Both the position numbers and the translations under genes were made by a program. A DNA stretch of 64,000 bases from a virus (taxonomy: Duplodnaviria; Caudoviricetes). The stretch is from the IMG/VR virus record IMGVR_UViG_3300032218_003260, one strand, 5' to 3'. Under the pieces are notes generated by a model, which ran no database searches, was not told the DNA's origin, and saw only the letters and a program-made list of their open reading frames with translations. Below, one piece after another: positions 16,206-60,137 of this stretch; position 1 is the first letter of the stretch; the number at the start of each line of letters is the position of its first letter.

Positions 16206-16327
16206 AGTGCGACCGTTGTTTTGCTAACAATATCTCGCCCATTCTACTGCGCTTTATTCTATTACAAAAGCTGGGTTGGACTGAAAATGAGTTACGGCGC
16301 TGTAAAAACAGTTACCAAAGCGCTGAT

Positions 16328-16385
16328 AGCTAAAAAAACGCTTGGCAGCCGGGAGTGGTTAGCTCCCGGACTGCGTCTGCGTTTT
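16328..16385 (-). terminator. intrinsic terminator, possibly bidirectional
   Basis: Long hairpin with core CCGGGAG/CTCCCGG, an A-tract on the left and a T-tract on the right. Confidence 0.7.
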
Positions 16386-16802
16386 TCAATTGACCGACTC
16401 CGCGATAGCCGCGTTGTAATCATAGCTGGTCATGTAACCACGGTTAATAACCACCGTTAATTGCGCAAAACAATTGTCGATTTCTTTGTTGCACGCGTCG
16501 ATTTCCGGCCATTTGGCGAGGGCTCGGATGAGGGCGTCGCGGGAATCTTGCTGTTGCCGAATCTTGGCATTGATTTCGGTCATCGCGGCTTCCCACGCAG
16601 CTTTGTCGACGTACTTGTGTTTGTTAAGCGCCGGCGACCACACGAACCGCTCACTCAACGGGGCGGTGATGTCCGTGGTGGTTTTCCTTGGCAGGAAGTG
16701 CCGACAGGCAATCCACAGCACTGTCATGACTACCATGCCAGCAATGAGCGACTGGCCCATCGCGTACATCAGCCCGGCAACAAACATCAGAATCGTATCC
16801 AT
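16386..16802 (-). CDS. hypothetical membrane protein in a self-contained cassette
   Basis: ATG 16802 gives MDTILMFV...; two N-terminal TM segments; has its own promoter and terminator. Confidence 0.65.
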   Translation of the reverse strand: MDTILMFVAGLMYAMGQSLIAGMVVMTVLWIACRHFLPRKTTTDITAPLSERFVWSPALNKHKYVDKAAWEAAMTEINAKIRQQQDSRDALIRALAKWPEIDACNKEIDNCFAQLTVVINRGYMTSYDYNAAIAESVN

Positions 16803-16880
16803 CGTGGTTTTCCCTTGTGGAAAGAATGCGGCTGGAGACACAACACGTGGCTTACCAGCAAAGAGCTAGGCTCCTCACTA

Positions 16881-16909
16881 GATATACCCGGTTTTGGCCG
16901 TTTATTTAG
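16881..16909 (-). promoter_or_regulatory. phage promoter motif CTAAAT-N17-YATAT, copy 1
   Basis: CTAAAT aaacggccaaaaccggg TATATC; one of six copies with identical 17-nt spacing. Confidence 0.75.
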
Positions 16910-16912
16910 CTA

Positions 16913-19900
16913 TCAGCGGTTAGCGGTATACGCGACGCCCGCACCACCCGCTGCAAGCCCGCCGACCCCGGCTGCGCCATAGCCCACGCGCTTAGCCATT
17001 GGGACCATGGGCGATGCCACGGTCATGCCGTAGCGAATCGCGGGGCCGTACACCATCTTGCTCAGCGTCGGATTCACGCCGGATTCCTGCGGCTTGTACA
17101 CCATGCTGTGATCGGCTGCGTTCATACCTTGTAGCCGCCGGGGCGATAACTGAAACTCAACAGGTGTGCCTTTGAGCGTCCCTTTGATGTTATGCCCATG
17201 ATAGCCGGGGCGCATTAACATCTTGGACCCAGTGATTTGCACACCAGCGTCTGTCAGTTGTTTTGTTAACGAATCAACAGCAGGTTGACCGTAGCCTTGG
17301 CTGGACGAAAGCCGAAAGCCAAGTAAGTCGTTGGTGACTTGATCTGTTCCGTGGCCTGCGATGCTTCCGGGTGTCTTCACGCGGCCGGCATATGTCTGGA
17401 AACCCTGCGGCTTGAACGACGACAAGAACTCGTTGCCAGCCTGCAGGGCTTGATTGCGCTCGGCGTGCAGGATGCCTTCGGGGACAGAATTACCCAGCGT
17501 CGTCATGGGCCCGCGGAACGACTGGCGCGCAGCTGTCATGCCTTTCGACAGCCCTTTGAAACCCAGCCTGCGTCCAAGCCCCATAGCGCCAGAAACTAAC
17601 CCAGCCGACTTTTCTTTCGCGTCGGGCCAGCCGGGTTTGAGCTGGTAGTCATACACAGGCTCGCCGGCCAACAGCTGCTGCTTGGCCAATGTGGGCACAG
17701 CGCCAGCGATCGAACCGTCTGGTTGGGGCTGTAACCGATAGCGTTCTTTCAGCCACTGTTTATGATATTCAGGCGTTTCTTTGGCCAGCCGATCAAACTG
17801 CTGCGTGGCGATAAACGTGTTGATATCATCCGGCGTCATCGTAATCGGGTGCAGCTTTTCGCGCTGTTTTTTCAGGGGCGTGATGCTGTAATGCACACCC
17901 TCTTGTAGCGGCGTTTTATTTTCGCGCTCTGCTAGGTGTTTGCGCAGCCGGTCAAGCACGGCCTGTTGTTTTTTTTTATTACCGGGTAACACAGCGCGGG
18001 CTTCACCAGTGCGGGCGTTGTTATATGCAATCCCGGGATGGTCTAACTCGTCCAAAATAGTATGCAAAGACTTGCGCAGGTTTACGCCTTGTACGTCGCC
18101 GTCAAAGCGATACACGCCGGCTTTTTTATCTGTCACTTGTCTGGCCGCGGCGTCAGCTTTAAACCCGCCCAGCGTCTTCTTGCCGTAGTGCGCGAGCATG
18201 GGCGCAGAAGACGCCAGCATGTATGTGGGCAGGCCAATAAACGCCGATCGGCCGCCCTTGAGCTTCATCTGGCGCATGAGCTTGGCGCCCCGACGAGACG
18301 CATCAAACTCAGACGCTAACATCGGCACTGCGCCGACTGTACCCGCAATCGCCGAGTTCCGAGAGTTAGTCTCGTTGTTTGAAAGCAGCGCGCCGGCCGT
18401 ACCTAATCCCAGCGCCGGCCGACCGATTTGATTACCGCGCATGAGCCATTTGCCGCCCATGTGGTGCCCGATCTCGTGCGCTAACACGCCGGGGTTACTC
18501 ATGCGCGGACTATGGCCAATCGTGGGTTTTGATATCCCCATACCCGGATTTGCCGGTGTATAAAACGCGGGGGTGTTGCGCACACTATCAGCCGCTGAAC
18601 GGCGCATTCTGTACTTGATGTTATTCATGAGATCGCCAAGCCAGTTGCCCGTTGTTTTAGGTGCTATCTTTGGGTCAATCTTGCTGGCAACGTTCAAACT
18701 ATCTGTCACATCTACGCCCTGCCCCTTTGCGTAGTCACTGAGTTGTTGCCACGCTTGCGATGTTTCAAGCGTCGGCACAGCGTTCATTTCTGGGCGCGCA
18801 ACACGGTTCATGTACGCAGTTAATGGCACGCCAATCGCAGCATTTGTCGCCGGCATGCCACCGAGGTACCAGCCCATCGAGTGCCCTAAACCGGGCTTAG
18901 CGGGTTCTTTTTTTTTTGCTTCGATTGCGCTTTTTTTACCAAAACGCGCAGCAAAATCTGCGGGCGATACCGGGCGAATCGAAGGCGGCGCGGCTGTTGT
19001 TGCTGGGGCGGCCGGCGGTGTGGCCGGCGCTGCAGTGGGCGATACAGGGCGCTGCATAACTGGCGAGGGAGCCGGACGAGCTGCCGGGGCTGGGCTTGGT
19101 CGCGGAACAGCAGTTGGAGCCGGCTGCGCAACTGGCGTGGGTCTAGCTTGCTGCGAAACAGGAGCGGGAACCGGACGCGCTGCCGGCCGAGGTGCTGACG
19201 TTACCGCTTGCCCCGCTCCGGTGGCGCGTTGCGTGTCTATTCGCTGGCGCATCAGCTGATAATTTTGCAATTTTTGCCATTCTGGTACGCCGTCGTTCAC
19301 GTTTACAACGTTTTTCATGTAACTACTGAGGTCGGCGCTCGTGGGCCGTGCAGGCATTTTGAACGGTGTGCGCGCAGCTGCCGCAATTGGTTTTTTCGCA
19401 ACTCCGCTGACCGCTTTACCAGCCATGCGACCAATCGAGCTGAGTAAACCGGCCATCTTCTCCCCGCCTACAGAATTGGCTGTCCCAAACGCGGCGTTCC
19501 CTGTGATATCACCCGTCGAAGACAACGCGCCGTATGAATTAATAGGATTGGCGTTGGGAGACGAACCGCCGCCAACAGGGGGTAGTTGGCCAGACGGAGC
19601 AGGCGAGCCCGTGTTTGCTGGCTGGGCGGCGGGAGCCTGTGGTTGGCCTTGTGGCGCCTGTGCCTGCATACCCATAGGGAGCGGCGTACCCATCGCCGGC
19701 ATGGCATATCGCTTAATTCCGGCGTTTGCAGGCATCCGGGCAGCCTCTCGGGCCTCCATTTCAGCCCTTTCATTCTCCATCGCCTGCATAATGGGCTGCG
19801 ACAAAACAGCAGAAAGCTTCGCCATTAACGTGTTTACACCATAATTTGGCTTTGTTTCCGAGTTACATCTTTCGCCCTTGGTTTTAACGACCTTGGGTGG

Positions 19901-20725
19901 ATTTTCGCCTGCAACTGTGGGCTTATCACTGGCCGGCTGCTCGATATAGACCTCTTTGGTGTCCGCTTTCTTGGATAATTTCCTGTAAATATCGAGGGCT
20001 ACAGAGTTTACAGCCGATTGTTTGTAAGTTGTCATGGGAGGTTTATTTGCAAAGGCTGCGTTAATGGGGGATTGGCTTGCGGTACCGGTGACATGGGGCA
20101 AAAACCCGACAACTCCACCAACACCAAGGTTCATGACACCGTTTGCGACTCCGATACCCTTCTCTAATGTCTCGGTAGGGAGTTCGCCATGTTGTTTTAC
20201 ATAGCGCTGCGTCTGATTCTGAAGCTGCTGGACGTCTTTATACGCTCTGGTGGCTTTATTGACGGTACTTTTATTGACGTTGGCGAAAGTCTTGGGGAGT
20301 TTTGAGTTTACAAGCTTATCGGAGAGTTCTAGTTGGCGCGCAGAGAGGACAGCAGCGTTGGGGAGGCGCTTGAGCAGTCTGTATGAGCGCATGGGGTTAA
20401 AAAACAGCACGCTTTCCCTTGCGGCATTCTGAAACAACTGCTGCAACATCGGCGAGCCAACACGTTTTGATAGCATTCCGGCAGCTGCAAGGCCGGCGGT
20501 TGTGCCCAGAGTGCTTAATCCAGCGGCAGCGGCAGTGTCTCGGGCTGCGGCACCGGGAGAAAAGTCGGCTTGCTTGGCCTCTGTGTCAGGTTCTTTGTCT
20601 TTTTTACTGTCAGACGCGTACATGGGGAGTTTCTTTTTGATCGGATACTCGTGCGCCCAGCGTTTGGCAAGCTCTGGATGCTCGGCCCACAGAAACCTAC
20701 GCTGCTTTTCTGACTTAAACGGCAT
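16913..20725 (-). CDS. 1270-aa multidomain polyprotein-like protein: Zn-peptidase, acylphosphatase-like and RelA/SpoT synthetase-like domains
   Basis: N-terminus MPFKSEKQRRFLWAEHP; LAHEIGH...EFDASRRG; GDVQGVNLR; GRVKTPGSI...DLLGFR...GYHGHN...EFQL...HSMVYK; KxA/KxS at the domain junctions. Confidence 0.75.
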   Translation of the reverse strand: MPFKSEKQRRFLWAEHPELAKRWAHEYPIKKKLPMYASDSKKDKEPDTEAKQADFSPGAAARDTAAAAGLSTLGTTAGLAAAGMLSKRVGSPMLQQLFQNAARESVLFFNPMRSYRLLKRLPNAAVLSARQLELSDKLVNSKLPKTFANVNKSTVNKATRAYKDVQQLQNQTQRYVKQHGELPTETLEKGIGVANGVMNLGVGGVVGFLPHVTGTASQSPINAAFANKPPMTTYKQSAVNSVALDIYRKLSKKADTKEVYIEQPASDKPTVAGENPPKVVKTKGERCNSETKPNYGVNTLMAKLSAVLSQPIMQAMENERAEMEAREAARMPANAGIKRYAMPAMGTPLPMGMQAQAPQGQPQAPAAQPANTGSPAPSGQLPPVGGGSSPNANPINSYGALSSTGDITGNAAFGTANSVGGEKMAGLLSSIGRMAGKAVSGVAKKPIAAAARTPFKMPARPTSADLSSYMKNVVNVNDGVPEWQKLQNYQLMRQRIDTQRATGAGQAVTSAPRPAARPVPAPVSQQARPTPVAQPAPTAVPRPSPAPAARPAPSPVMQRPVSPTAAPATPPAAPATTAAPPSIRPVSPADFAARFGKKSAIEAKKKEPAKPGLGHSMGWYLGGMPATNAAIGVPLTAYMNRVARPEMNAVPTLETSQAWQQLSDYAKGQGVDVTDSLNVASKIDPKIAPKTTGNWLGDLMNNIKYRMRRSAADSVRNTPAFYTPANPGMGISKPTIGHSPRMSNPGVLAHEIGHHMGGKWLMRGNQIGRPALGLGTAGALLSNNETNSRNSAIAGTVGAVPMLASEFDASRRGAKLMRQMKLKGGRSAFIGLPTYMLASSAPMLAHYGKKTLGGFKADAAARQVTDKKAGVYRFDGDVQGVNLRKSLHTILDELDHPGIAYNNARTGEARAVLPGNKKKQQAVLDRLRKHLAERENKTPLQEGVHYSITPLKKQREKLHPITMTPDDINTFIATQQFDRLAKETPEYHKQWLKERYRLQPQPDGSIAGAVPTLAKQQLLAGEPVYDYQLKPGWPDAKEKSAGLVSGAMGLGRRLGFKGLSKGMTAARQSFRGPMTTLGNSVPEGILHAERNQALQAGNEFLSSFKPQGFQTYAGRVKTPGSIAGHGTDQVTNDLLGFRLSSSQGYGQPAVDSLTKQLTDAGVQITGSKMLMRPGYHGHNIKGTLKGTPVEFQLSPRRLQGMNAADHSMVYKPQESGVNPTLSKMVYGPAIRYGMTVASPMVPMAKRVGYGAAGVGGLAAGGAGVAYTANR

Positions 20726-20942
20726 TGGCGTAGCTCGAAGGATAGTGAACTCAGCGGAAATCCCGGATAGTTGGAGTTCAAACTAGTCGGAAAAACCTAT
20801 AAGTTGGTCGGCGCGGCTGTTCCAAAGCTGAATACGCCCCCATTTTGGCATACAAGGGCTGAGAAGAAAAGGGCGAAGGCGCGTCTGATACACTAGAAGG
20901 TGGTTTTAAAAATGGACTTGGCGTTTCGACAAGGAGGCCGCC

Positions 20943-21272
20943 ATGAAAGCTCTACGGATTATGTTATTTAGCCTGCTGTGCGTGATCGCTATGGGGCAGG
21001 TTTGCGCTGATACAGTGTTAATGTTTTCCGCTGACTGGTGCAAATACTGCCAGATAGCCAAAAAAGACCTACTGGAAAATAAAGACGAGGTGGCAGAGTG
21101 GAATATCGCGGTGGTCGATACTGATGAGAGCCGAGAAATGGCGGAACAGTATGGCGTAAATAGCCTGCCGACGTTTATCTATCTAAACGACGCCGGGGAA
21201 GAACTAGCCCGGGTGGTTGGCTATAAGGGCTACCGCCAGTTAAAGCGCTGGGTGGAAAAGAATAAGCGCTGA
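20943..21272 (+). CDS. thioredoxin-family protein with signal peptide
   Basis: WCKYC; YGVNSLPTF; AGGAGG RBS. Confidence 0.9.
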   Translation: MKALRIMLFSLLCVIAMGQVCADTVLMFSADWCKYCQIAKKDLLENKDEVAEWNIAVVDTDESREMAEQYGVNSLPTFIYLNDAGEELARVVGYKGYRQLKRWVEKNKR

Positions 21273-21301
21273 TAGCTAAAGAAAAGACGCAGCTTTTCCT
21301 G

Positions 21302-21499
21302 TTATAGGGTCTTTACGGCGCTGAACTGTTTTATCATCTGCATCACATAACTGAGCAGCGCCGAGTTATCTCCCGGAAGCTCAGTTATGACGTGGTGCAT
21401 GATTCCGAGCACGAGTACAAGAGCCTGTCGGTCATGCTCTTTTGACGCGTGCTGTACCGCTTGAAACATCATGACTGTGATGATATCCGCAGGGGTCAT
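21302..21499 (-). CDS. hypothetical protein
   Basis: 65-aa ORF with an AAGGA RBS. Confidence 0.5.
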   Translation of the reverse strand: MTPADIITVMMFQAVQHASKEHDRQALVLVLGIMHHVITELPGDNSALLSYVMQMIKQFSAVKTL

Positions 21500-21514
21500 T
21501 AGGTTCCTTTAGTT

Positions 21515-21562
21515 AAAAAAAAGCGCATGCAGCCCCGGGGCTTGGGCGGCACCCGGGGCTGC
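21515..21562 (-). terminator. intrinsic terminator
   Basis: 11-bp stem GCAGCCCCGGG/CCCGGGGCTGC followed by a U-tract on the minus strand. Confidence 0.8.
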
Positions 21563-21604
21563 AATACGCTTCCGCGCAGCAATGGTTACATTACTGCGCA
21601 CACA

Positions 21605-22264
21605 TCAGGTCGTCGCCGTAGCGAGCGCCGTGGCGGTCTTCACCGCGCGGCGGCCTTTGGAGCCGTTCTTGATCGCCGTGGCGCGAGCCTTGGCGATCTC
21701 CTCCTTGTCCACACCCGCCGTGAAGAGGGTGTAGCAGGTCTCGGCGAGCACGCCGGCGGTGACCGCGCAGGTGAGCACGCTCACGAGCTTGGCCGTACCG
21801 ACCGTCGCGCCAGCAGCGACCGCGAGGCCGCCGATGGTGCTGCCGACCAGCACGCCGCCAGTGACAGCAACGCCGATGGCCGCGGCGCCGCACAGGATCT
21901 TGATGGCGACCGTGTTGAGCTTGATCCAGTCCACATTCTTCGTCGAGACGAGGTTGCGGACATAGGCCAGCGCCAACTTGGCGTCACCAACAGCGCGCTT
22001 CATCTGGGCGCCGATCCAGTTCAGGACGCCGGCGCACCACTCGTAGATCGTGGTGAACACCTTGCCCATGAACTCCCAGACCGCCCGCCCGACCGCCAGC
22101 AGCGAGTCGAGCAGGTTGTCGAGAGAGGAACCGAGACCCTTGCCGGCCGTCTCGCAGAAGCCCGGCTCGCGCCGCGGTGCTCGTGTGATCTTGCCAGTCT
22201 TGGACTTGGCCTTCACACCAGCGTGACCACCGACAGCGGGAGCAGCAGAAACTTGAACCGTCAT
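21605..22264 (-). CDS. hypothetical membrane protein
   Basis: 219 aa with hydrophobic Gly/Ala helices; strongly GC3-rich codons by eye; has its own promoter and terminator. Confidence 0.7.
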   Translation of the reverse strand: MTVQVSAAPAVGGHAGVKAKSKTGKITRAPRREPGFCETAGKGLGSSLDNLLDSLLAVGRAVWEFMGKVFTTIYEWCAGVLNWIGAQMKRAVGDAKLALAYVRNLVSTKNVDWIKLNTVAIKILCGAAAIGVAVTGGVLVGSTIGGLAVAAGATVGTAKLVSVLTCAVTAGVLAETCYTLFTAGVDKEEIAKARATAIKNGSKGRRAVKTATALATATT

Positions 22265-22361
22265 CGCAACCTCTTCTTTCTATAGAGAGGAGTCAAGCTA
22301 CGCCTAACCCGGGTAACATGCGGGGGTATCGACAACACGCCGATACCAGAGAGGGTCACTA

Positions 22362-22390
22362 GATATACCCGGTTTTTCGGGTTTATTTAG
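22362..22390 (-). promoter_or_regulatory. phage promoter motif, copy 2
   Basis: CTAAAT aaacccgaaaaaccggg TATATC. Confidence 0.75.
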
Positions 22391-22393
22391 TTA

Positions 22394-23536
22394 TCAACCA
22401 ATCGACCGGGTTTTGAGAACCAGCTTTTCCTGCGCGGGCCATAACAGCATTTGCTGCATGGTATCCGTGCTGGTGACATCCTTGAGCAGCTTGAGGGCTG
22501 CTGCGGGATTCGCCTGTAGAACCTCGGGAGCTGGCTTCTCTTCTTTGCACGCCCGAGATAGATCGTCATACCGCGTGTACGTATCCCACACCCAATCATC
22601 GCCGTTCTCGGGGTTGTGCTTTTGCAGCTCCCCGGTCACGTAATGATTGGTTTGCACAAGGCCGTGTTTCCTTGTGCGGATGTAGGTATGTTCCCCGGTA
22701 TGTGTTACGACCGCGTGTTCTTTATCTTTTGTACCGACCACGTGCGCGAAGAATGGCACCATGGTTTGCTGCGTACGGAGATGAAAAACAAGCTTCTCGT
22801 AACTTGGCATCTTGTCACAGACTGCTCGGACCCGATGTAAAGCAGGCCACGCTTGAAGCAGGTCTTTAACAGATGCCGCGGTGTTCGTCATGTAGGCAAA
22901 CATCGCACTTAACGACTCCCACCAGCCCGAATCTGTGTCGTCTTCGTCTTCTTCTTCGACGAGTGACTTCACAATCGGAGCTTGGTTGACCACCAGCCCC
23001 CACTGGTCTGACATCGCGCTGACGACGCCCACCATGCCCGCTACGCCTACTGACGTATAGCTTTTGCGGCCACGATGAAAGCGAATCAGCTTGGTGTGCT
23101 TCCCAGTGGAAGGAGGCGTCACCCAGTCCATGTTGCGCACAATGACTGGGCTGGAATTCACATCGAAGCTGGCCGAACTGCAGCCACAACCATACATCTC
23201 AGCGAGAGACGTAAAGTCGTAGATTAAGTTCCCCAGCAGAAGCTTGCCGACAGGAATCTCAGCGTGCTTCGCAATGCACCGGAGTTCCTGCGGATACTCA
23301 AGGTCTGTACCCGTGAGGATCCAGTTCCCGAGTTGTCCGCCGCCGCTTGTCACACTCTTTACGACGCTTTTCATGGTGTCAGAAAGGTGTGGCAAGATTT
23401 CCTCGTCGACATGGGTTTCCACGTCTTCAAGAATGGCCTGAATCGCGTCGCCGTTCTGACGCGCGAATCCGGCCCAGCGTTCGTCTGGCGGGGCATCCAG
23501 ATCGATGTCATGAAGCTTTCCGGTATACAGTTTCAT
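22394..23536 (-). CDS. Ntn-hydrolase, acid ceramidase/NAAA/C45-like
   Basis: IDLDAPPDERW; YGC-G-CSS (Cys nucleophile); RNMDW; QTNHY; start MKLYTGK at 23536. Confidence 0.8.
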   Translation of the reverse strand: MKLYTGKLHDIDLDAPPDERWAGFARQNGDAIQAILEDVETHVDEEILPHLSDTMKSVVKSVTSGGGQLGNWILTGTDLEYPQELRCIAKHAEIPVGKLLLGNLIYDFTSLAEMYGCGCSSASFDVNSSPVIVRNMDWVTPPSTGKHTKLIRFHRGRKSYTSVGVAGMVGVVSAMSDQWGLVVNQAPIVKSLVEEEDEDDTDSGWWESLSAMFAYMTNTAASVKDLLQAWPALHRVRAVCDKMPSYEKLVFHLRTQQTMVPFFAHVVGTKDKEHAVVTHTGEHTYIRTRKHGLVQTNHYVTGELQKHNPENGDDWVWDTYTRYDDLSRACKEEKPAPEVLQANPAAALKLLKDVTSTDTMQQMLLWPAQEKLVLKTRSIG

Positions 23537-23862
23537 GACGTTTTCCTTTCCAGCTTCTCGATCCGCTCGTGCAAGAGGTCGATCGCTTGCTGATGTGCGC
23601 GCGAATGCGCCCAAACGCGTTCACGCCCAGCGGCAAGATCGGTCACAGACTTGCGCAAATTGTCGAGCGCCGCGCTGTTCATCTTGTCGAGTTCCATGAG
23701 CTGGCCGATCATGTTCAGCACTCGGTTCTCGCGCCGCTCGATCTCAGACACGCGATCACGCAGCTCAATGAGACTGTGGATAGTCTTCATCAGGTGCGTG
23801 TGCGTTGCCACGTTGCCGCTCTCCAGCAGAGCAGCAATATCGGTTTCAAACAGCTGACTCAT
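23533..23862 (-). CDS. coiled-coil hypothetical protein
   Basis: Heptad pattern; ATGA overlap with the downstream gene. Confidence 0.65.
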   Translation of the reverse strand: MSQLFETDIAALLESGNVATHTHLMKTIHSLIELRDRVSEIERRENRVLNMIGQLMELDKMNSAALDNLRKSVTDLAAGRERVWAHSRAHQQAIDLLHERIEKLERKTS

Positions 23863-23935
23863 CGGTCATTCTCCTTAGCCGCGCAAAGCGGCAAAAAGAC
23901 ATAGAACACCCCGACACACTACCGGGGTACCAGTA

Positions 23936-23964
23936 AATATGACGCGAATTACGCGTTTATTTAG
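23936..23964 (-). promoter_or_regulatory. phage promoter motif, copy 3
   Basis: CTAAAT aaacgcgtaattcgcgt CATATT. Confidence 0.7.
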
Positions 23965-23980
23965 CCGACGTATTGATAGC

Positions 23981-24023
23981 TAAAAAAAGCGCCCGCAAGT
24001 GGAGGTCATACCTACGGGCGCTT
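23981..24023 (-). terminator. intrinsic terminator
   Basis: AAGCGCCCG/CGGGCGCTT stem plus U-tract. Confidence 0.8.
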
Positions 24024-24026
24024 TGC

Positions 24027-24251
24027 CTACTGGGCCGAGAGAGTTGTCCACTCGCCGTTGTAGGTCTGATCCAGCGGATTGATAATCCGTGGCTTGGCTG
24101 CGTGGGAGACAGGCTTAACCGCATGACTGGGCGCCTGTACGGGCGCCGTCATACGGTGCTGCATGTCACGCCACGCCGGTGACGGTTGGAACTTGTCAGA
24201 GATCCATCCGATCGCCGCCAGCCCGCCAAAGATCATGAGGGCCGTGGTCAT
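24027..24251 (-). CDS. small membrane protein
   Basis: 74 aa; N-terminal TM segment; GGAAGGA RBS. Confidence 0.65.
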   Translation of the reverse strand: MTTALMIFGGLAAIGWISDKFQPSPAWRDMQHRMTAPVQAPSHAVKPVSHAAKPRIINPLDQTYNGEWTTLSAQ

Positions 24252-24317
24252 GCTATTTCCTTCCTTTCAATCGTGACGGGTAAAGCGTAATTTTTGGCTT
24301 ACGCCTATTCGTCACTT

Positions 24318-24346
24318 AATATGACCGGAAATAGCAGCTTATTTAG
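24318..24346 (-). promoter_or_regulatory. phage promoter motif, copy 4
   Basis: CTAAAT aagctgctatttccggt CATATT. Confidence 0.7.
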
Positions 24347-24434
24347 CCCTGAGCCAGATCATGATATCTAAGCCCATGTCTTCGTATTCTTCGTCGTCGT
24401 CTGAGGTAAAGATATGAATAGCGTTGGTGCGCAT
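24339..24434 (-). CDS. 31-aa acidic peptide
   Basis: Not in the ORF track. GGAGG RBS; MRTNAIHIFTSDDDEEYEDMGLDIMIWLRAK; the stop lies inside the promoter motif. Confidence 0.55.
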   Translation of the reverse strand: MRTNAIHIFTSDDDEEYEDMGLDIMIWLRAK

Positions 24435-24532
24435 GTGTACCTCCAGACGACAGGACGTTAAAACGTGTCGCAATTATACGATTTTGATAACACGTCCCGA
24501 AACGTAAAGAAGTTTTGATATGTATTTCTTAC

Positions 24533-24633
24533 AGCTATTTTACGTAACATGTTGATATACAAAGACTTAGGGCAAGCGGGTTTTTCCTGCTTGGCGTAAG
24601 TCTGTGCGCGACAATATGTTACGTTAAATAGCT
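24533..24633. repeat. 101-bp imperfect palindrome containing two inverted 25-bp TAA-N4-YTG-N5-CAA-N4-TTA units with dif-like arms
   Basis: Units at 24545-24569 and 24597-24621. The arm TTACGTTAAAT (24619-24629) differs at one base from the E. coli XerD arm TTATGTTAAAT. Confidence 0.7.
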
Positions 24634-24673
24634 AAAAAAAAGCGCGGTCAGGGTCCGAAGACCACTGCCGCGC
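24634..24673 (-). terminator. intrinsic terminator
   Basis: GCGCGG/CCGCGC stem plus U8 on the minus strand. Confidence 0.7.
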
Positions 24674-24678
24674 AAGAT

Positions 24679-24909
24679 TCAGGTGACAGCCTCAAAGTCG
24701 GCGTCGATCACCGTGTAGCCGTCGAAGTCGTCGTTCAGGATCGCTGCTTCGGCCGGGATGCACTCGCAGACGCCCAGTTCAAGGCCGCAGTGCAGGCAGT
24801 GCTCGATGTCCGTGTCAGGCGGCGCAGTGGCCACAGCAAACACGAACAGCATGTCCCGGTAGTCGTCCACATTGACCTTCACCGCCGGGTTGTTGCGCAG
24901 ACCAGCCAT
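24679..24909 (-). CDS. small acidic protein with CxxC...CxC motif
   Basis: ATG 24909 with AAGGAGG RBS; HCLHCGLELGVCEC. Confidence 0.65.
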   Translation of the reverse strand: MAGLRNNPAVKVNVDDYRDMLFVFAVATAPPDTDIEHCLHCGLELGVCECIPAEAAILNDDFDGYTVIDADFEAVT

Positions 24910-25093
24910 AATCTCGTCCTCCTTGAAGAGAAATAAAACAACCGCCGTCTCGTGGCGGTACACGCTAATGGTCTCTCGCCATTAGACGGCCCCACCTATC
25001 ACCGGGCAGGGGTACGGCGAGGAAGTGCTATAGCTTCATGCGTAAGGCCAGTGCAATACACACTGCCGCGGCAAGAGATATAGGTCCTCAATA

Positions 25094-25122
25094 GATATGC
25101 CGTGTTTTTGGCAGATATTTAG
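25094..25122 (-). promoter_or_regulatory. phage promoter motif, copy 5
   Basis: CTAAAT atctgccaaaaacacgg CATATC. Confidence 0.7.
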
Positions 25123-25138
25123 CTAGGTTCTGATAGCT

Positions 25139-25177
25139 AAAAAAAAGCCGGCAGGGAAGCGCATCCCTACCGGCTTT
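25139..25177 (-). terminator. intrinsic terminator
   Basis: AAGCCGG..AGGGA/TCCCT..CCGGCTT stem plus U8. Confidence 0.8.
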
Positions 25178-25233: not shown

Positions 25234-25584
25234 CGTTAGCACAAGAAACGCTCGTGAGGACAGGTATCACTACCTACCTACGCCCTGCAGCCGTTTGTTA
25301 GGTCACGAACAGTCTCGCGTTGTACGGACGCAAAACTATGTTATTTAAAACTAGTCCGGCAGGTCTTTCACCTGCACCACCCGCTCCCCTAGCCATAATG
25401 TAGTGTAGTCGAGTGGAGTCACTTGGAATAGCCAACGAGGCCCGGGCGGGGCATGCCCGCTATTCCGCCATCTACCCTAACGGTTCCTGCAAAACATTTC
25501 ACGAAAGCTGCTCGCCCAGCCCTCTGCATGCACCTAGAGATAGGTTCATACACATGCTTCTCACGAGCGTTTCTTGTGCCAACG
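25234..25584 (-). ncRNA. candidate novel structured RNA of about 350 nt closed by a 25-bp stem
   Basis: Inverted repeat 25234-25258/25560-25584. Its single mismatch is a G-U pair on the minus strand. Many internal stems, no credible ORF, terminator downstream. Confidence 0.65.
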
Positions 25585-27337: not shown

Positions 27338-27952
27338 TTAATCCCACAGGGCTTGGTAGTACTTACCGAACAGAGTCGTTCCACGGCGGATACGCTCCTC
27401 GTGTGCTTTCAATCCATCGAAATCGCACTTCACCCGCTTCATGTGCTCGGTGATGTTATCTACATCCGCCAACTCGTCCCGACCCTGCCAGAACTGATCG
27501 TCATGATCCGGGTCGTTCAACTGCTCGAACGCCCAGATCATCTCACCTATGATCCACTCCCAACGCTTTTCATGGTTCTGGTCAGGGGCGCTGCAATTCT
27601 TCTCTTCTTCAGTCAGCGCCGGCGCAGCGCTTGACCGAAGCTCTTCCGGTACATCCTCGTCATCAGTAAAGGGATACCCGTGCTGGGTCGCCTTTAGCTG
27701 CTTGAGCAAGGGAAGGATGATCGGCGCCAAGGTGCTATCGACGCTCCACGTGTCGTAGTAGTGCAGCTTGACGACAACCTTCTGCTTGCGGAACCGACCG
27801 TGAAACCACTCGCAGAACTCGCCAAACCGCGTGTTGTTTAACCACTCGCCGATCTTGTAGCAGCGGTCTTCAGAGACGCCAACCCACTGCAACAGGTCAG
27901 CAATCTGATACGGCCCCCACCACTTGGGAGACTTACCGATGTAAACCTTCAT
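27338..27952 (-). CDS. conserved-looking phage hypothetical protein
   Basis: MKVYIGK...DTWSVDSTLAPIILPLLKQLK...W..II..MIWAF...LFGKYYQALWD. Confidence 0.7.
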   Translation of the reverse strand: MKVYIGKSPKWWGPYQIADLLQWVGVSEDRCYKIGEWLNNTRFGEFCEWFHGRFRKQKVVVKLHYYDTWSVDSTLAPIILPLLKQLKATQHGYPFTDDEDVPEELRSSAAPALTEEEKNCSAPDQNHEKRWEWIIGEMIWAFEQLNDPDHDDQFWQGRDELADVDNITEHMKRVKCDFDGLKAHEERIRRGTTLFGKYYQALWD

Positions 27953-28499: not shown

Positions 28500-28780
28500 A
28501 AAAAAAAAGAAAAACCGGGCGGGTCGATTTACGCCCCCAACCCTATAACCCAAGACGAGCTGCAGCTCTTCTTGGAACCCCTCCACGTCGGCAGCACGCC
28601 ACGAGATTCCCGCAGCGGTATCCGATGGTAAGGAGTACCCGGTTAGACAACGGTGCGCTCAGGTATGCTAGCTGGCGCTGGATATAGGACTTTGGGCTCG
28701 GGCATACCAATCCACCCTAGTTTCCCGGGACCTGCAATCGGCTGTTACCGACGCAGCATTATCCCTTCATCCCCGTTGTT
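28500..28780 (-). ncRNA. candidate structured RNA of about 260 nt immediately downstream of the tmRNA
   Basis: No ORF. Stems GGTATGC/GCATACC, CCAAGA..GAGC/GCTC..TCTTGG, CTGC..TCGG/CCGA..GCAG, GGTA.TCC/GGA.TACC; ends in a long U-tract. Confidence 0.5.
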
Positions 28781-28782
28781 TA

Positions 28783-29126
28783 TGGAGGCGGCGGGAATCG
28801 AACCCGCGTCCAGAGATAGCTCCAGAAAGAACGTCTACGTGTGTAGGCAGTTGTTGTTTACACTCCTGCCAAAGTTAGCCGATTATCGGCGTCAGGTGGG
28901 CTACCACCATCTTGCCCTTTCTTGCTGGGCCAGATCAGCCGATTATCGGCGTCAACCTGATTGGGCAATAAGGCTCAGGTCGCCTCACCCGCTGGCCTAA
29001 AACTAGGCAGCGAGGGCCGGTGCAAAAGCGCCAGCTAGAAACGTAATCGGCTTTTAACGTGGCCAACCGATCAACCACGACACGCAGTCCTAACCTTCCT
29101 TATCCTGTCGATACCAGTACGCCCCC
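28783..29126 (-). ncRNA. ssrA: tmRNA (one-piece, 344 nt)
   Basis: 5' GGGGGCGUACUGGUAUCGAC. 3' T-arm GCGGGUUCGAUUCCCGC plus CGCCUCCA, giving a G3-U acceptor pair. Tag ORF 29032-29003 encodes GAFAPALAA*. Confidence 0.95.
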
Positions 29127-29377: not shown

Positions 29378-29783
29378 TGGCTGGTTGAGAAGGCAACCAT
29401 TTACCCAAGCCCAACACCTAGCGAATGCGTTGGCACCATCGCGAAAGTCTCGACTCAGGGATGTGGTGCTAACGGGCATACTGGGTTTGCGGGGCTTGCA
29501 CGGTAACGAGTGATGTTACCCAAATAAGTGCTTACCTAGCCGCATAACAGTATTGCTACTACCCTCCCACAACATTAAGGAGCATAACTTCCCCCCGCAT
29601 TTCGCAGCGCTGTACACACGCTGCCGAGACAATAACCCGGGCGGGAGTCGAACCCGCAAGCCTTTCGGCACTGGAACCTAAATCCAGCGCGTCTGCCAGT
29701 TCCGCCACCGAGTTGAAAGATGTGGCTGGTTGATAGGGCAACCATTTAACCAAGCCCAACACCTAGCGAATGCGTTGGCACCA
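29378..29783. repeat. 61-bp near-identical direct repeat at 29378-29438 and 29723-29783
   Basis: TGGCTGGTTGA..GGCAACCATTTA.CCAAGCCCAACACCTAGCGAATGCGTTGGCACCA; differences fall mainly in a hairpin loop. Confidence 0.85.
29633..29714 (-). tRNA. tRNA-Leu(UAG)
   Basis: Cloverleaf with long variable arm; anticodon arm CTGGA-TTTAGGT-TCCAG; no encoded CCA. Confidence 0.92.
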
Positions 29784-29796
29784 CAATTTGTTTGTA

Positions 29797-29973
29797 CTAG
29801 ACGAGCTGCGGCCGAAGCTGTTTTTCAACTTCGGCTCTCAGATTTTCGACTGCCTCCAGACACTTCTGGCGGTTCTCGGGAGTTACGCTCTCGGCGTCCG
29901 CGATCGCTCGACGCGTCCAAGTCGTGCAATCTAAAATCGCCAACACTTGCGCCGGCGTCAAATGAAAAACCAT
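29797..29973 (-). CDS. hypothetical protein (58 aa)
   Basis: Not in the ORF track. AAAGGA RBS; MVFHLTPAQVLAILDC... Confidence 0.55.
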   Translation of the reverse strand: MVFHLTPAQVLAILDCTTWTRRAIADAESVTPENRQKCLEAVENLRAEVEKQLRPQLV

Positions 29974-29996
29974 TTGGTTCCTTTCTGTTAAAAAAG

Positions 29997-30233
29997 CTAT
30001 GACCCCATGAGCGTTGCGACTTGATCCAGCGTCGCGTTCTTCAAATCAAACGGCGCAGACCAATTGCCGGCGATTTCGATCGGCGTTTCGCTCTTGAGGA
30101 TAATGACGCGCACGAAATCATCCCGGCCATGACAATCGGACAACGCCGTCTTTGCAGCGTCCATGTCGTCGCTCTCGACGATAGCGACGCCAAAACCGGC
30201 ATTGCCCGGAACAAAACCCAACGCTGCAATCAT
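29997..30233 (-). CDS. hypothetical protein
   Basis: AAGGAGG RBS. Confidence 0.6.
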   Translation of the reverse strand: MIAALGFVPGNAGFGVAIVESDDMDAAKTALSDCHGRDDFVRVIILKSETPIEIAGNWSAPFDLKNATLDQVATLMGS

Positions 30234-30273
30234 GTTTTCCTCCTTCGCGTGGTGTTAAAAACAATCGCACCAT

Positions 30274-30346
30274 TGACCCCACGGGGATTCGAACCCCGGT
30301 AAACGGAACGAAAATCCGTTGTCCTAGGCCACTAGACGATGGGGCC
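30274..30346 (-). tRNA. tRNA-Glu(UUC)
   Basis: Cloverleaf; ACGGA-TTTTCGT-TCCGT. Confidence 0.92.
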
Positions 30347-30355
30347 AGTGTCGTC

Positions 30356-30541
30356 TCAGTCTACCTTTTCGACGTTTAACGCGATAAGAAAACCGCACAT
30401 TTGCGCGAACGTGATCAGCTGCTTCTCTTTGAGTTTGAAGAAATCTGCAAAGTGAGCAAACAGATCGCAGGGCGACAAGTCTGTGGGGTTCTGCGTTTCG
30501 CGCAACTTAGATATCAATTCGGCTGCTCGTTCCAGTGTCAT
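30356..30541 (-). CDS. hypothetical protein (61 aa)
   Basis: AAGGAG RBS, ATG 30541. Confidence 0.55.
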   Translation of the reverse strand: MTLERAAELISKLRETQNPTDLSPCDLFAHFADFFKLKEKQLITFAQMCGFLIALNVEKVD

Positions 30542-30577
30542 CTCGCTGCTCCTTCGTGTAAAGATAACAAAACCCAA

Positions 30578-30648
30578 TGGGCCGCCAAGGAATCGAACCT
30601 TGCATCGCGAGTTAATAAGACTCGCTTGCCTACCAGTTTCCGCGGCCC
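30578..30648 (-). tRNA. atypical tRNA-Ile(UAU), possibly a pseudo-tRNA
   Basis: Perfect acceptor stem GGGCCGC/GCGGCCC and T-arm; anticodon loop CUUAUUA; short non-pairing D-arm; U at position 37. Confidence 0.6.
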
Positions 30649-30711
30649 GCGTGGGTGGGGCGCCAGAGGCTTGGGCTACCTCCAGCGCCCCACCGTCAGC
30701 GAGTCTACGCT

Positions 30712-31074
30712 TCAGCGGTAGCGTTTGCACGCATACCACCGGCCATCCCTGCCACGCGCGACCCCTTGGTCTACGACCGCTCTGCCGCTGTTGCTGTAGC
30801 AGCAGTTGCCCAGCGCCTGTTCAGGCGTCGAGCCCGTGCCGACGCCTTCGTAGCCTGAGTTCCCGCCGTGATGTCCCATGCGGCCATTGCTGGCCTGAAG
30901 CTCGGCTACGCCCTGCGCCGAACCGGTGTGCCCGGCATAAGACGTAGCGTACGAGTAGGACTTGACGGGAGCCGGAACCTGAGACGGCGTGTAGTGGCGC
31001 CTATGTCGCGGGGCAGCATGCGCAACGCTGACCATCGAAAGAACGACTGCTACACACATGAGAAAACGAAACAT
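30712..31074 (-). CDS. small secreted protein, CAP-like (GHHGG...EGVG...CC)
   Basis: Signal peptide from ATG 31074; MGHHGGNSGYEGVGTGSTPEQALGNCC...WYACKRY. Confidence 0.65.
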   Translation of the reverse strand: MFRFLMCVAVVLSMVSVAHAAPRHRRHYTPSQVPAPVKSYSYATSYAGHTGSAQGVAELQASNGRMGHHGGNSGYEGVGTGSTPEQALGNCCYSNSGRAVVDQGVARGRDGRWYACKRYR

Positions 31075-31162
31075 AACGATCCTCCGTGATCCTGTCGCGG
31101 GTGTGCGCGACGTCAAAAAAAGAACCCCACACCGGGTTACACAAACAGACGGTTTCCCGTCT

Positions 31163-31537
31163 TTACGCGGCAGCGAGCTTACGGCGTTTGGCCGCAGCGC
31201 GGCGCAGCTTGACCTCCGGCAAACCCCGCGGACGGCACAATGCGTACTGTACCGCGGCAGCCAGCAGCGCGTTCGAGTTTCGCTGAGAGAACACGTATCC
31301 ACCGTTCTTGTCGTTTGCCAGAAACGGATTACCCTTCCACTTATCAGGGCTCTTGGGATACTTCTTGACACGCTCGTCGAGCCACACTTCGGCCGCATGC
31401 TGGCGAACTTTGTAGAACGTGTTCATCGCCATGGCCCGCAGACCGAGCGTGCGACGATACACATTAACCTGCTCAAAAATCTCCCGCATGAACGACCGAC
31501 AACCGCAGCCCTTGGGGGCAACAAACTGGATCTTCAT
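31163..31537 (-). CDS. hypothetical protein
   Basis: AAGGAG RBS; 124 aa. Confidence 0.6.
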   Translation of the reverse strand: MKIQFVAPKGCGCRSFMREIFEQVNVYRRTLGLRAMAMNTFYKVRQHAAEVWLDERVKKYPKSPDKWKGNPFLANDKNGGYVFSQRNSNALLAAAVQYALCRPRGLPEVKLRRAAAKRRKLAAA

Positions 31538-31663
31538 CAGAATCTCCTTCTATCATCCCTGAACTTACAGCTGTTACGCGCAGCTGTTTCCCATAGAAAT
31601 CATCGCCGCGTAAAGACGATGATTGTTTTGATATCAACGGGATTGAAGAGTAACCCGGATAAA

Positions 31664-31737
31664 TAGGCGCAAAGGGACTCGAACCCCTAACCCCCTGCAT
31701 GTAAAGCAGGTGCTCTGACCAATTGAGCTATGCGCCT
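31664..31737 (-). tRNA. tRNA-Val(UAC)
   Basis: Cloverleaf; CCTGC-TTTACAT-GCAGG. Confidence 0.93.
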
Positions 31738-31743
31738 GCGAGA

Positions 31744-32100
31744 CTACGCCTCGCGCTCTCGCTCGCGGCGTTGACGCCGACGAGCCCACGGAGACCGGTT
31801 CCAGTACCAGCCCCGCCAGCGATTGCAATACGCACGCCAGCGCCGACGCAACTTGTGATACCACTTGTTGCGGCCGATACCGGTGAGGTACTGCTGCGTC
31901 CAGAATTCCATCGACTCGTCTGACGTACCATCCACGTAGCTTTCGCCGCAGTCGAAGCATCGGTTCGCCGGCACACGATACATAGGAACTTTGTGCATTG
32001 TTCCATCAATGCGCATCGTCACGATGTCGTTGAACTCGACCGCTTCGATGCGACCACCGCAGTGAATGCACTTCAACGACTTGTAAACCGGATTACCCAT
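31744..32100 (-). CDS. YgiT/MqsA-type zinc-finger protein
   Basis: CIHCGG...VPANRCFDCGESY; GGAGG RBS at ATG 32100. Confidence 0.7.
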   Translation of the reverse strand: MGNPVYKSLKCIHCGGRIEAVEFNDIVTMRIDGTMHKVPMYRVPANRCFDCGESYVDGTSDESMEFWTQQYLTGIGRNKWYHKLRRRWRAYCNRWRGWYWNRSPWARRRQRREREREA

Positions 32101-32112
32101 ACAGCCCTCCAA

Positions 32113-32198
32113 TGGCCAAGGCGGGACTCGAACCCGCACGGGAAATTACTCCCAGCGGATTTTAAGTCCGCTGCGTCTGCCGATTTCGCCACTTAGCC
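32113..32198 (-). tRNA. tRNA-Leu(UAA)
   Basis: Cloverleaf with long variable arm; GCGGA-CTTAAAA-TCCGC. Confidence 0.94.
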
Positions 32199-32207
32199 AG
32201 CCGCCCG

Positions 32208-32504
32208 CTAGACCAGCGCAGGCTCTTGCGGAGCCGGATACTGCTCGGGATGTGCGATGTGCCGAAATCTATCTTTACCAGTACGGCTGTGCGTGCCGAA
32301 CTTGTCTCGGCTGTGCATCGCATCGCGAACGTATTCAAACGCATGTTCCAGAGTCAGAAACTGCCCGTACGTCATCGACTGCCCGGCGCCGATTTTGCCG
32401 GCGAGATCCTGCGTTATCGCAAGCATCTTTTCCAACTCGATACCGATACGCTCGTTGTAGTAATCGGCCGTAGCTTCGTTGTCATCTCGTTCTTGTGTCA
32501 CCAT
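32208..32504 (-). CDS. hypothetical protein
   Basis: About 98 aa; start uncertain (32504 or 32528). Confidence 0.5.
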   Translation of the reverse strand: MVTQERDDNEATADYYNERIGIELEKMLAITQDLAGKIGAGQSMTYGQFLTLEHAFEYVRDAMHSRDKFGTHSRTGKDRFRHIAHPEQYPAPQEPALV

Positions 32505-32715
32505 TCCAGACGTACCTCTTGTCGCCAATCTGGCACCACCACCGCTGCCCGTCGTTCCAGTAGACGGGAGTCACAGACGGAGATGGCGGTTGCAGCGTTG
32601 TCGGCGCTGGGTGCGCCTTCTGATACTCTTCATAGCTCTGCCACGCGATTCCCGCAAGCATCAGCAACGCCGTCACCAAACCAATCAGATTTCCCTTGAT
32701 TTCGATACCACTCAT
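32482..32715 (-). CDS. small membrane protein
   Basis: AAGGAGG RBS; single TM segment. Confidence 0.6.
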   Translation of the reverse strand: MSGIEIKGNLIGLVTALLMLAGIAWQSYEEYQKAHPAPTTLQPPSPSVTPVYWNDGQRWWCQIGDKRYVWNGDTRTR

Positions 32716-32764
32716 TTCAAAACCTCCTTGTTTGGAAATGACCTTTGAACAACCAATCGAACAA

Positions 32765-32837
32765 TGGGCCCTGTGGGATTCGAACCCACGACCAAAGGAT
32801 TAAAAGTCCCTTGCTCTACCAACTGAGCTAAAGGCCC
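32765..32837 (-). tRNA. tRNA-Lys(UUU)
   Basis: Cloverleaf; AGGGA-CTTTTAA-TCCTT. Confidence 0.95.
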
Positions 32838-32843
32838 ACGCGC

Positions 32844-33585: not shown

Positions 33586-33685
33586 GGCATCCTCCTTGCT
33601 TAGCCCGAATGAGTGCCAAAATCCGCAGACACGTATCTGCGGGGGCACAAGGAATATGCCCGAATATTGCCAAAAATTTAGGCAA

Positions 33686-60078: not shown

Positions 60079-60094
60079 AAAAGCTCCAATAGCT

Positions 60095-60137
60095 AAAAAA
60101 GGGGGCAACGAATGGCCGAAGCCTAGACGTTGCCCCC
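60095..60137 (-). terminator. intrinsic terminator
   Basis: 10-bp stem GGGGGCAACG/CGTTGCCCCC plus U6. Confidence 0.8.

Follow-up and report, generated by a model that had tools for sequence, protein, structure and literature searches.

A word common to terminators and promoter-like elements at cassette boundaries in an uncultured freshwater phage clade

The stretch of DNA dealt with here, termed the window, is the 64,000 nucleotides of IMG/VR virus record IMGVR_UViG_3300032218_003260 (Duplodnaviria; Caudoviricetes), and of chief concern is a short word, TAGCTAAA, which recurs at gene boundaries in it, mostly between 16,206 and 25,177. The word is enriched, forms part of hairpin terminators in one orientation and of a promoter-like element in the other, and is conserved clade-wide among related phages whose genomes have junctions at these motifs; that homology drove the recombination behind the junctions is what we infer. 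A preliminary description of the same letters had proposed a system for gene capture or shuffling, or else a boundary element bound by a protein, and what became of both proposals is taken up once the locus has been laid out.

The locus and its source

Phage-type genes in the window encode collagen-like tail fibres, baseplate-type proteins, an SNF2-type helicase, PhoH and thymidine kinase. Megablast and tblastn with the region, a 1027-aa protein and a 428-aa protein found no close relative among 50,697 deposited phages, the nearest cultured match being the orphan Salmonella phage Arash, at 33% identity in the helicase. Relatives were retrieved from IMG/VR with a conserved 204-aa protein (27338-27952, minus strand), to which the amino acid identity is 90-93% for L081-L085, 73% for L086 and ~52% for the distant relative L001; distant relatives of 34-49% GC were retrieved as well. 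Several relatives are on contigs of 194-205 kb that are 95-100% complete, one of them with terminal repeats, and the public runs that hold related DNA are labelled mostly freshwater, lake or wetland. The source of the window is an uncultured ~200-kb freshwater phage clade. Comparisons below involve the window, L081-L086 and contigs from other samples, and the complete relative used for whole-genome scans is of 204.6 kb.

In four genomes of 194-205 kb both kinds of signal lie on the gene strand (the minus strand of the window), within one stretch of ~8-10 kb plus a few distal copies, at ~9 promoters and ~6-10 terminators per genome. The hyperplastic stretch with the cassettes is of ~8-11 kb and has conserved genes on either side. 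The cargo consists mostly of ORFans, for which neither a Pfam family nor relatives were found, and includes a thioredoxin and a hydrolase. In the window the genes are as follows, T and P standing for the terminators and promoter-like elements listed further on, and blocks A and B for gene groups described with the rearrangements.

16389-16802, minus strand: 138-aa membrane-like ORFan cassette gene, specific to the window, with no relatives in IMG/VR
16913-20725, minus strand: 1270-aa gene, in block B with the thioredoxin and 65-aa genes
20943-21272, plus strand: thioredoxin gene, the one gene that runs the other way; its stop codon, TGA, lies within the terminator word (GCGCTGA-TAGCTAAA)
21302-21499, minus strand: 65-aa cassette gene, present or absent exactly between two motif copies
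21605-22264, minus strand: 219-aa cassette gene, an ORFan, between P(b) and T21522
22394-23862, minus strand: 109-aa and 406-aa genes of block A, the 406-aa protein having AAT/NAAA-type hydrolase domains
24027-24251, minus strand: 74-aa cassette gene
24679-24963, minus strand: cassette gene of ~78-94 aa with a long leader ahead of it

The 1270-aa protein is only ~350-800 aa long in relatives, internal segments having been gained or lost, and, as a separate observation, matches to its N-terminal ~27 residues (MPFKSEKQ...) occur in at least 490 viral stretches whose context is unrelated in other respects. Among the cargo of relatives, L085:13106-13504 (plus strand) matches the PADLOC family Unk_01 ('unknown small protein, sometimes fused to CARF', E 3e-23) and may be a counter-defence gene carried in the cassette system.

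Occurrence of the word

Eight exact copies of TAGCTAAA are present in the 64 kb, as against 1.26 +/- 1.13 in dinucleotide shuffles, of which none in 100 reaches eight. Six are on the plus strand, at 16327, 21273, 23977, 24629, 25134 and 60090, and are parts of terminators for the minus, i.e., gene, strand; the two on the minus strand, at 16905 and 25118, belong to the promoter-like element. In L001 there are six copies where 0.15 are expected, and each of L081-L086 has 4-8 downstream of the anchor gene; the word is absent from the low-GC relatives (34-49% GC). Its core, TAGCTA, is palindromic. As the observed to expected ratio of TAGCTA is 1.3 both in the window and in the 204-kb relative, i.e., outside the elements it is neither avoided nor enriched, a restriction-type or endonuclease target was rejected as an identity for the word.

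Occurrence of the extended word, GCTGATAGCTAAA, in both orientations is what gave rise to the inverted repeats of the preliminary description. The perfect 14-bp terminal inverted repeat reported there, CGCTGATAGCTAAA, is indeed exact, at 16321-16334 and 16905-16918, the ends of a unit of 598 bp; a 15-mer form of the word is TTTAGCTATCAGCGC. The five stop codons said to be embedded in the element, at 16913, 21270, 22394, 24339 and 61973, are all ends of open reading frames (ORFs) and all inside it. Moreover, TGATAGCTAAATAA closes all three reading frames, so that a gene joined upstream of a stand-alone promoter gets terminated.

Terminator class

Minus-strand terminators had been described as ending in a U-tract and AGCTAT, and every position listed for them proved right. 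At the six plus-strand copies of the word there is a GC hairpin followed by T6-8 and AGCTAT, the copy at 21273 having, as had been remarked, a weak hairpin, and an interrupted T-run; strong hairpins occupy the same site in relatives. A scan for T-runs preceded by a stable hairpin, with a free energy (dG) cut-off of <= -24 kcal/mol, yielded six on the minus strand, with AGCTAT directly after five of them and AACTAA after the sixth, at 21522. With a dG of -24 to -39 kcal/mol, T6-8 and a position behind the end of an ORF in each case, these have the marks of intrinsic terminators. Those standing apart from a promoter-like element, with dG in kcal/mol, are:

16326-16381, minus strand: terminator T16338; hairpin 16339-16381, T7 at 16332-16338, AGCTAT at 16326-16331, then CAGCGC; dG -25.1
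21272-21298, minus strand: weak terminator copy; GAAAAG/CTTTTC stem, TTTAGCTAT and CAGCGC
21509-21569, minus strand: terminator T21522; strong hairpin, T8 and AACTAA; dG -39.4; the ribosome site of the next gene directly after it
24628-24673, minus strand: terminator T24641; hairpin 24642-24673, T8 and AGCTAT; dG -24.5
60089-60137, minus strand: distal terminator T60100; hairpin, T6 and AGCTAT; dG -25.6; the ribosome site of the next gene directly after it

In the clade DNA examined 47 distinct terminator sites were found, in 30 unrelated hairpin classes, each with T4-9 and A(G/A)CTA(T/A), and 13 of the sites continue with CAGCGC. The 204.6-kb relative has 17 candidate terminators, the four with AGCTAT being among the most canonical and another strong site reading T7-GCTATC; this phage has few strong intrinsic terminators, and most carry the word. 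AGCTAT behind the U-tract is no requirement of a canonical intrinsic terminator. Could the motif still be a mere by-product of what promoters and terminators have to look like, a way out that the preliminary description had left for itself? As 30 unrelated hairpins carry AGCTAT, ordinary constraints of that sort are insufficient.

Behind T24641 lies an AT-rich intergenic stretch (24474-24628, minus strand), conserved in relatives behind four different hairpins, that contains a TATAAT-type -10 and four copies of ACGTAA/TTACGT and may be a host-type promoter with operator sites.

Promoter class

The promoter-like element is RGCTAAATA-N17-ATAT(C/T), usually followed by TA(G/T)TGAG; the region has five copies of it, and variants that score lower lie at 33683 and 61973. 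That its -35 region carries the terminator word in opposite orientation, as had been claimed, applies to the two copies with the exact 8-mer; elsewhere there are variants of (A/G)GCTAAATA, the conserved promoter word, namely AACTAAATA at 22392, GGCTAAATA at 23966 and 24348, and AACTAAATT at 61973. The spacing is 8+17+5 in all 55 distinct copies in the clade, and a weight matrix gives seven promoters in the window and nine in the 204.6-kb relative, all on the gene strand, and none in shuffles. CTAAAT - 17 bp - CATATC is the geometry of the sigma70 family with foreign hexamers, and a sigma70 consensus scan reports none of the sites. The copies outside the composite modules are:

16881-16918, minus strand: P(a), CGCTGA-TAGCTAAATA-N17-ATATC; 55.1 bits; TGA stop of the 1270-aa gene inside
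22362-22396, minus strand: P(b), TGATA-ACTAAATA-N17-ATATC; 48.4 bits; TGA stop of the 406-aa gene inside
24318-24348, minus strand: P(d); 44.9 bits; TAA stop of a 44-aa ORF (24339-24473) inside the GCTAAATAA box
33645-33683, minus strand: distal promoter variant, CCTAAATTTTT...GGGCATATT; 25.7 bits
61935-61975, minus strand: distal promoter variant upstream of the 428-aa gene; 23.8 bits; TGA stop of ORF 61973-62407 inside

The 428-aa gene behind the last of these has no PDB sequence match and no useful Atlas hit. A mini-hairpin in the promoter spacer was considered and dropped: when the 5' half of one promoter spacer was joined to the 3' half of another, the mean energy was the same (-1.89 versus -1.83 kcal/mol), with 804 of 2000 permutations as low.

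Composite modules

Terminator and promoter-like element also occur together, 8-10 bp apart, at two places in the window and in every relative:

23936-24021, minus strand: T23988 (hairpin 23989-24021, T7 and AGCTAT; dG -26.7), a 9-10-bp spacer, then P(c) at 23936-23966
25094-25177, minus strand: T25146 (hairpin, T8 and AGCTAT; dG -29.5), an 8-bp spacer, then P(e) at 25094-25124

The junction TTTAGCTA-N8-TAGCTAAA that the preliminary description likened to a recombination core is the T25146/P(e) module. Its letters were reported correctly (25118-25141: TTTAGCTA, an 8-bp spacer and TAGCTAAA, exact), as was the 9-bp spacer of the second junction, at 23960-23984 (TTTAGCCG, spacer, TAGCTAAA), of which the left arm is imperfect. 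In all, the spacers between inverted words are of 8, 9, 10 or 20 bp and their sequence differs both between sites of one genome and between orthologous sites; most terminator copies are a single arm with no second one. A scan of IMG/VR with the composite pattern gave 85 stretches, mostly chance matches in AT-rich coding DNA, and the hairpin with the promoter was found only in contigs of ~52-59% GC.

When an orthologous module of seven genomes is aligned (A1), the hairpin is seen to be kept, its changes being one compensatory pair (GC/AU) and a number of G-U changes. Both words, the T-run with AGCTAT and AGCTAAATA, are invariant, and almost every genome has its own version of the 7-8 nt that separate them. 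Invariant words flanking a scrambled spacer indicate purifying selection on both words rather than recent copying, as copying or gene conversion of recent date would have made the spacer uniform as well. The gene behind P(e) has a leader of ~180 nt (24912-25093, minus strand) with a terminator-like hairpin (24941-24959 and TGTTTTATTT) just before the ribosome site, which may be an attenuator or regulatory leader.

Rearrangements among relatives

The relatives are collinear at anchor genes and divergent between them, and where cassettes have been lost, replaced or transposed the junctions fall in the T-run/AGCTAT word or on the margin of the promoter box. Block A consists of P(c), the 109-aa gene, the 406-aa hydrolase-like gene, P(b), a ~220-aa gene and T21522, and block B of the 65-aa gene, the convergent thioredoxin gene and the long gene of the 1270-aa type. 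Their order is A-B in the window and L084 and B-A in L081, L082, L083, L085 and L086, and the alternative order is also found in a contig from another sample of the source study (joint 21521->24008). Homology of block A sets in with the first base of GCTAAATA and breaks off within the T-run of the block's terminator. In the window, L081 and L083 two direct copies of the word flank the 65-aa cassette; in L082 and L086 it is absent and a single copy is left, L085 has a different cassette there, and an independent wetland contig (run X4) lacks it with the joint 21281->21521, one letter lying between. As to the unit at 16321-16918, L084 and the wetland contig have kept its promoter (95.6% identical) and terminator around a replaced body, which in X4 is 648 other letters at the joint 16387->16829; other relatives have different genes or nothing at that place.

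At a finer scale, a table of hairpin class by flank class has one hairpin joined to up to three downstream flanks and one flank to up to four hairpins, the point of switching being between the hairpin and the sequence after AGCTAT(CAGCGC). Eight of 39 clusters of alignment breaks are within 20 nt of an element, the elements so taken covering 5.4% of the region (permutation p ~0.0008). The preliminary description had said that an absence of breakpoints at the element in related genomes would count against it, and breakpoints do lie there.

Recombination and transcription machinery

Profile searches of four relatives that are 95-100% complete disclosed no tyrosine (PF00589) or serine (PF00239) recombinase, and PF00589 was absent also from a fifth contig that is 55% complete; the control genomes all matched, and the contigs searched were those of the relatives rather than the window's own genome. 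The relatives do encode an SbcC-like ATPase, and an ORF of ~500 aa has a borderline RecA-fold match (27 bits), with which a capacity for general recombination and repair is plausible.

All four have an ORF of 1468-1473 aa resembling the beta subunit of RNA polymerase (RNAP; PF00562, E ~1e-52). A conserved ORF of 277-293 aa has a weak sigma70_r4-like match, of 15-18 bits and below the cut-off, and the profile search of the relatives gave no Sigma70_r2; a search for T7-type RNAP had no match, its positive control being without a match as well. In Arash, a distant cultured analogue, RNAP subunits, a sigma factor and a helicase are virion proteins (PMC10585845).

Interpretation

What would one word be doing at both ends of so many units? 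TAGCTAAA would be the common core of two clade-specific transcription signals, a terminator class, in which any GC-rich hairpin precedes T7-9 and AGCTAT and often CAGCGC as well, and a promoter class. The latter is probably read by the phage's own multisubunit RNAP, perhaps with a divergent sigma-like factor, given its own RNAP-like ORF, the virion RNAP of Arash and hexamers that are not those of sigma70. Alone, or as composites of a terminator, 8-10 bp and a promoter, the signals would bound small self-expressing genes. Every boundary would then offer the same 13-19 nt (T-run, AGCTAT and CAGCGC) or the same promoter box, and these shared letters could be the short homologies at which general recombination or repair joins unrelated DNA, with whole expression units deleted, replaced or moved as for the PeSLs of T4-type phages. 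This PeSL-like reading, in which composite terminator/promoter modules in a hyperplastic region insulate accessory genes and provide short homologies for shuffling, with no dedicated site-specific recombinase, is given a probability of about 0.62. It retains from the preliminary description the shuffling of genes, insofar as self-contained transcription cassettes exist and relatives differ at their boundaries, and drops the dedicated site-specific recombinase.

Several points weigh against it. Promoter and terminator activity are predictions from sequence, and a selected hexamer after the U-tract is left without explanation by the model. Seven fairly close genomes and fragments were compared, and they amount to few independent recombination events. 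The two versions of the flank upstream of the 671-aa gene differ only by an indel of ~50 nt, and hairpin-flank combinations are not all separate exchanges. No definite strand-exchange protein was found in the relatives beyond the borderline RecA-fold match, and no RecT. Further, 31 of the 39 break clusters are away from elements, many of them inside fast-evolving genes, and random illegitimate recombination followed by selection for intact cassettes would also put junctions at gene boundaries.

That last thought can be taken as a full explanation: the words would be purely transcription signals, recombination would strike at random, and the survivors would be those keeping promoter, gene and terminator as a unit. 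It matches the classical account of phage mosaicism at gene boundaries, which reportedly goes back to Juhala and Hendrix in 2000, it has no difficulty with the breaks away from elements, and the cargo, being dispensable ORFans, suits it. However, homology-guided exchange predicts precision of the junctions, and precision is what is found: they are inside the common 9-19 nt itself, between hairpin and flank and in many combinations, and one cassette was lost exactly between two direct copies with a single copy left. Selection acting as the only filter is for these reasons thought unlikely, though it deserves to be taken seriously.

Could the word instead be the site of a protein, as the preliminary description had alternatively proposed? 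A phage or host protein would recognise (TGA)TAGCTAAA in either orientation, e.g., a sigma-like factor for which it is the -35 box at promoters, the inverted copy behind terminators serving, much as stoperators do, as a roadblock, an insulator or an enhancer of termination; such binding could coexist with a role in shuffling. The invariance of AGCTAT and AGCTAAATA beside a scrambled spacer is what binding would lead one to expect, as is the hexamer after 30 unrelated hairpins; the terminator word read in reverse complement, GATAGCTAAAAAAA, is similar to the promoter box TAGCTAAATA; and an RNAP of its own is encoded by the phage, as is a possible sigma-like protein. However, half-sites 14-16 bp apart with spacers of 8, 9, 10 or 20 bp are ill suited to a rigid dimer, the majority of terminator copies consist of one half-site, elsewhere TAGCTA shows no enrichment or avoidance, and for the binding protein there is a candidate only. 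On balance a protein-bound boundary element is doubtful. A dimeric activator on TTTAGCTA-N8-TAGCTAAA, centred at about -42.5, was judged unlikely, in view of the 14-16 bp between half-sites, their variable spacing and the predominance of half-sites.

A bolder and equally tentative variant is that the AGCTA word is the recognition element of the phage's minimal multisubunit RNAP or sigma-like factor at both ends of the unit, as -35 box and, inverted, as a sequence-specific part of termination or of termination and reinitiation. If true, a non-canonical multisubunit RNAP would have an intrinsic terminator that depends on sequence, and the portable boundaries for gene exchange would be set by the same word.

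The claim that inverted words are core sites for a tyrosine, integron-like or other dedicated recombinase had its appeal in the 8-bp arms and 8-bp spacer at 25118-25141, the 14-bp perfect inverted repeats around the 598-bp unit, the palindromic TAGCTA and the bounding of cassettes by inverted copies. It is very improbable: PF00589 and PF00239 are absent from the four relatives, arms are of 8 bp only and mostly single, and spacers that vary in length and sequence within a genome and between orthologues would block strand exchange between sites. A hairpin promoter of N4 style, made of hairpin and T-run with the start at AGCTAT, is remote, for although the word is followed by the start of a gene, at 10-17 nt, in three cases, there are copies with no gene close by.

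Other features of the window

Known RNA families across 15-32 kb of the window are a transfer-messenger RNA (tmRNA) and transfer RNAs (tRNAs) only. The tmRNA (Rfam RF00023, 121.8 bits, full length) is at 28780-29126 on the minus strand, and five tRNA genes (Leu-TAG, Glu, Val, Leu-TAA and Lys; 29633-32838, minus strand) adjoin it, just upstream of the hyperplastic region. Between 25234 and 25584 there is no ORF, and a 25-bp inverted repeat at the ends, where a piece of the contig lies back on 25234-25258; T25146 directly adjoins.

AGGCCT, ATGCAT, CTCGAG and GAGCTC have no copies in the 204.6-kb relative, where 16-43 are expected, and none in the window, from which TCCGGA is likewise missing. 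These missing 6-bp palindromes look like strong avoidance of restriction sites and could hint at restriction-modification systems of the host.

Comparison with known systems

In the hyperplastic regions of T4-type phages, PeSLs (promoter-early stem-loops) combine terminator and promoter in one module and insulate ORFans; as the only sequence common to neighbouring cassettes, they are described as sites of homologous exchange (Arbiol et al. 2010, PMC2839356; Comeau et al. 2014, PMC4122927). The likeness extends to position upstream of ORFans, to the stop codon of the upstream gene being inside the AT-rich or -35 part, to indels, replacements and moves between close relatives mapping to the motifs, and to the proposed mechanism, homologous exchange within the conserved AT-rich part. 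However, the phage considered here is outside the T4 superfamily, as shown by the lack of a match among the deposited phages. Its CTAAAT/CATATC hexamers are not the sigma70 early consensus and are probably read by a phage-encoded multisubunit RNAP, a strong hairpin stands upstream of the promoter, the palindromic TAGCTA core is common, inverted, to terminator and promoter, and AGCTAT is conserved directly after the U-tract. There are ~9 promoters and ~6-10 terminators per genome as against ~50 PeSLs. In the low-GC relatives sigma70-type composites, with TTGACA, hairpin and T-run, and TATACT, are present instead (L088 ~12936; L095 ~18914), an ordinary PeSL-like architecture at the corresponding genome region.

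Morons of lambdoid phages, reportedly described in 2000 by Juhala and colleagues and by Hendrix and colleagues, are likewise single accessory genes with their own promoter and factor-independent terminator between conserved genes; the unit at 16321-16918, absent or filled with other genes in relatives, is just that. Morons have no common boundary word, whereas here all units have the same signals and these coincide with junctions. The stoperators of cluster A mycobacteriophages, attributed by repute to Brown and colleagues in 1997 for gp71 of L5, are also short asymmetric intergenic words in fixed orientation to transcription, but they are repressor sites over a whole temperate genome, and the word here is fused to intrinsic terminators, in one region, with no known binding protein. 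With tyrosine-recombinase cores and integron attC sites there are in common the inverted arms that flank a spacer of ~8 bp, and the position of cassettes between inverted repeats; here, in contrast, arms are of 8 bp, the spacer is variable, each cassette has its own promoter and there is no recombinase gene. In T4 middle promoters the MotA box replaces the -35. A -10-like element with a phage-specific box at the -35 position is a shared arrangement, but the box sequences are unrelated and no MotA or AsiA homologue was seen, none having been looked for.

If the PeSL-like reading holds, PeSL-type modular shuffling is extended from T4-like phages to an unrelated uncultured lake phage clade of ~200 kb with its own RNAP, which supports portable terminator/promoter modules as a general route to phage mosaicism. 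It also brings, for a phage polymerase of unknown specificity, a promoter well defined by 55 copies and a terminator well defined by 47 copies with 30 hairpins, boundary signals that could serve as portable expression parts for this phage group, and the specific puzzle of a hexamer that is under selection just behind the U-tract. In function the system is PeSL-like and each of its units is a moron in the lambdoid sense; new relative to PeSLs are the palindromic core common to terminator and promoter and the conserved hexamer after the U-tract.

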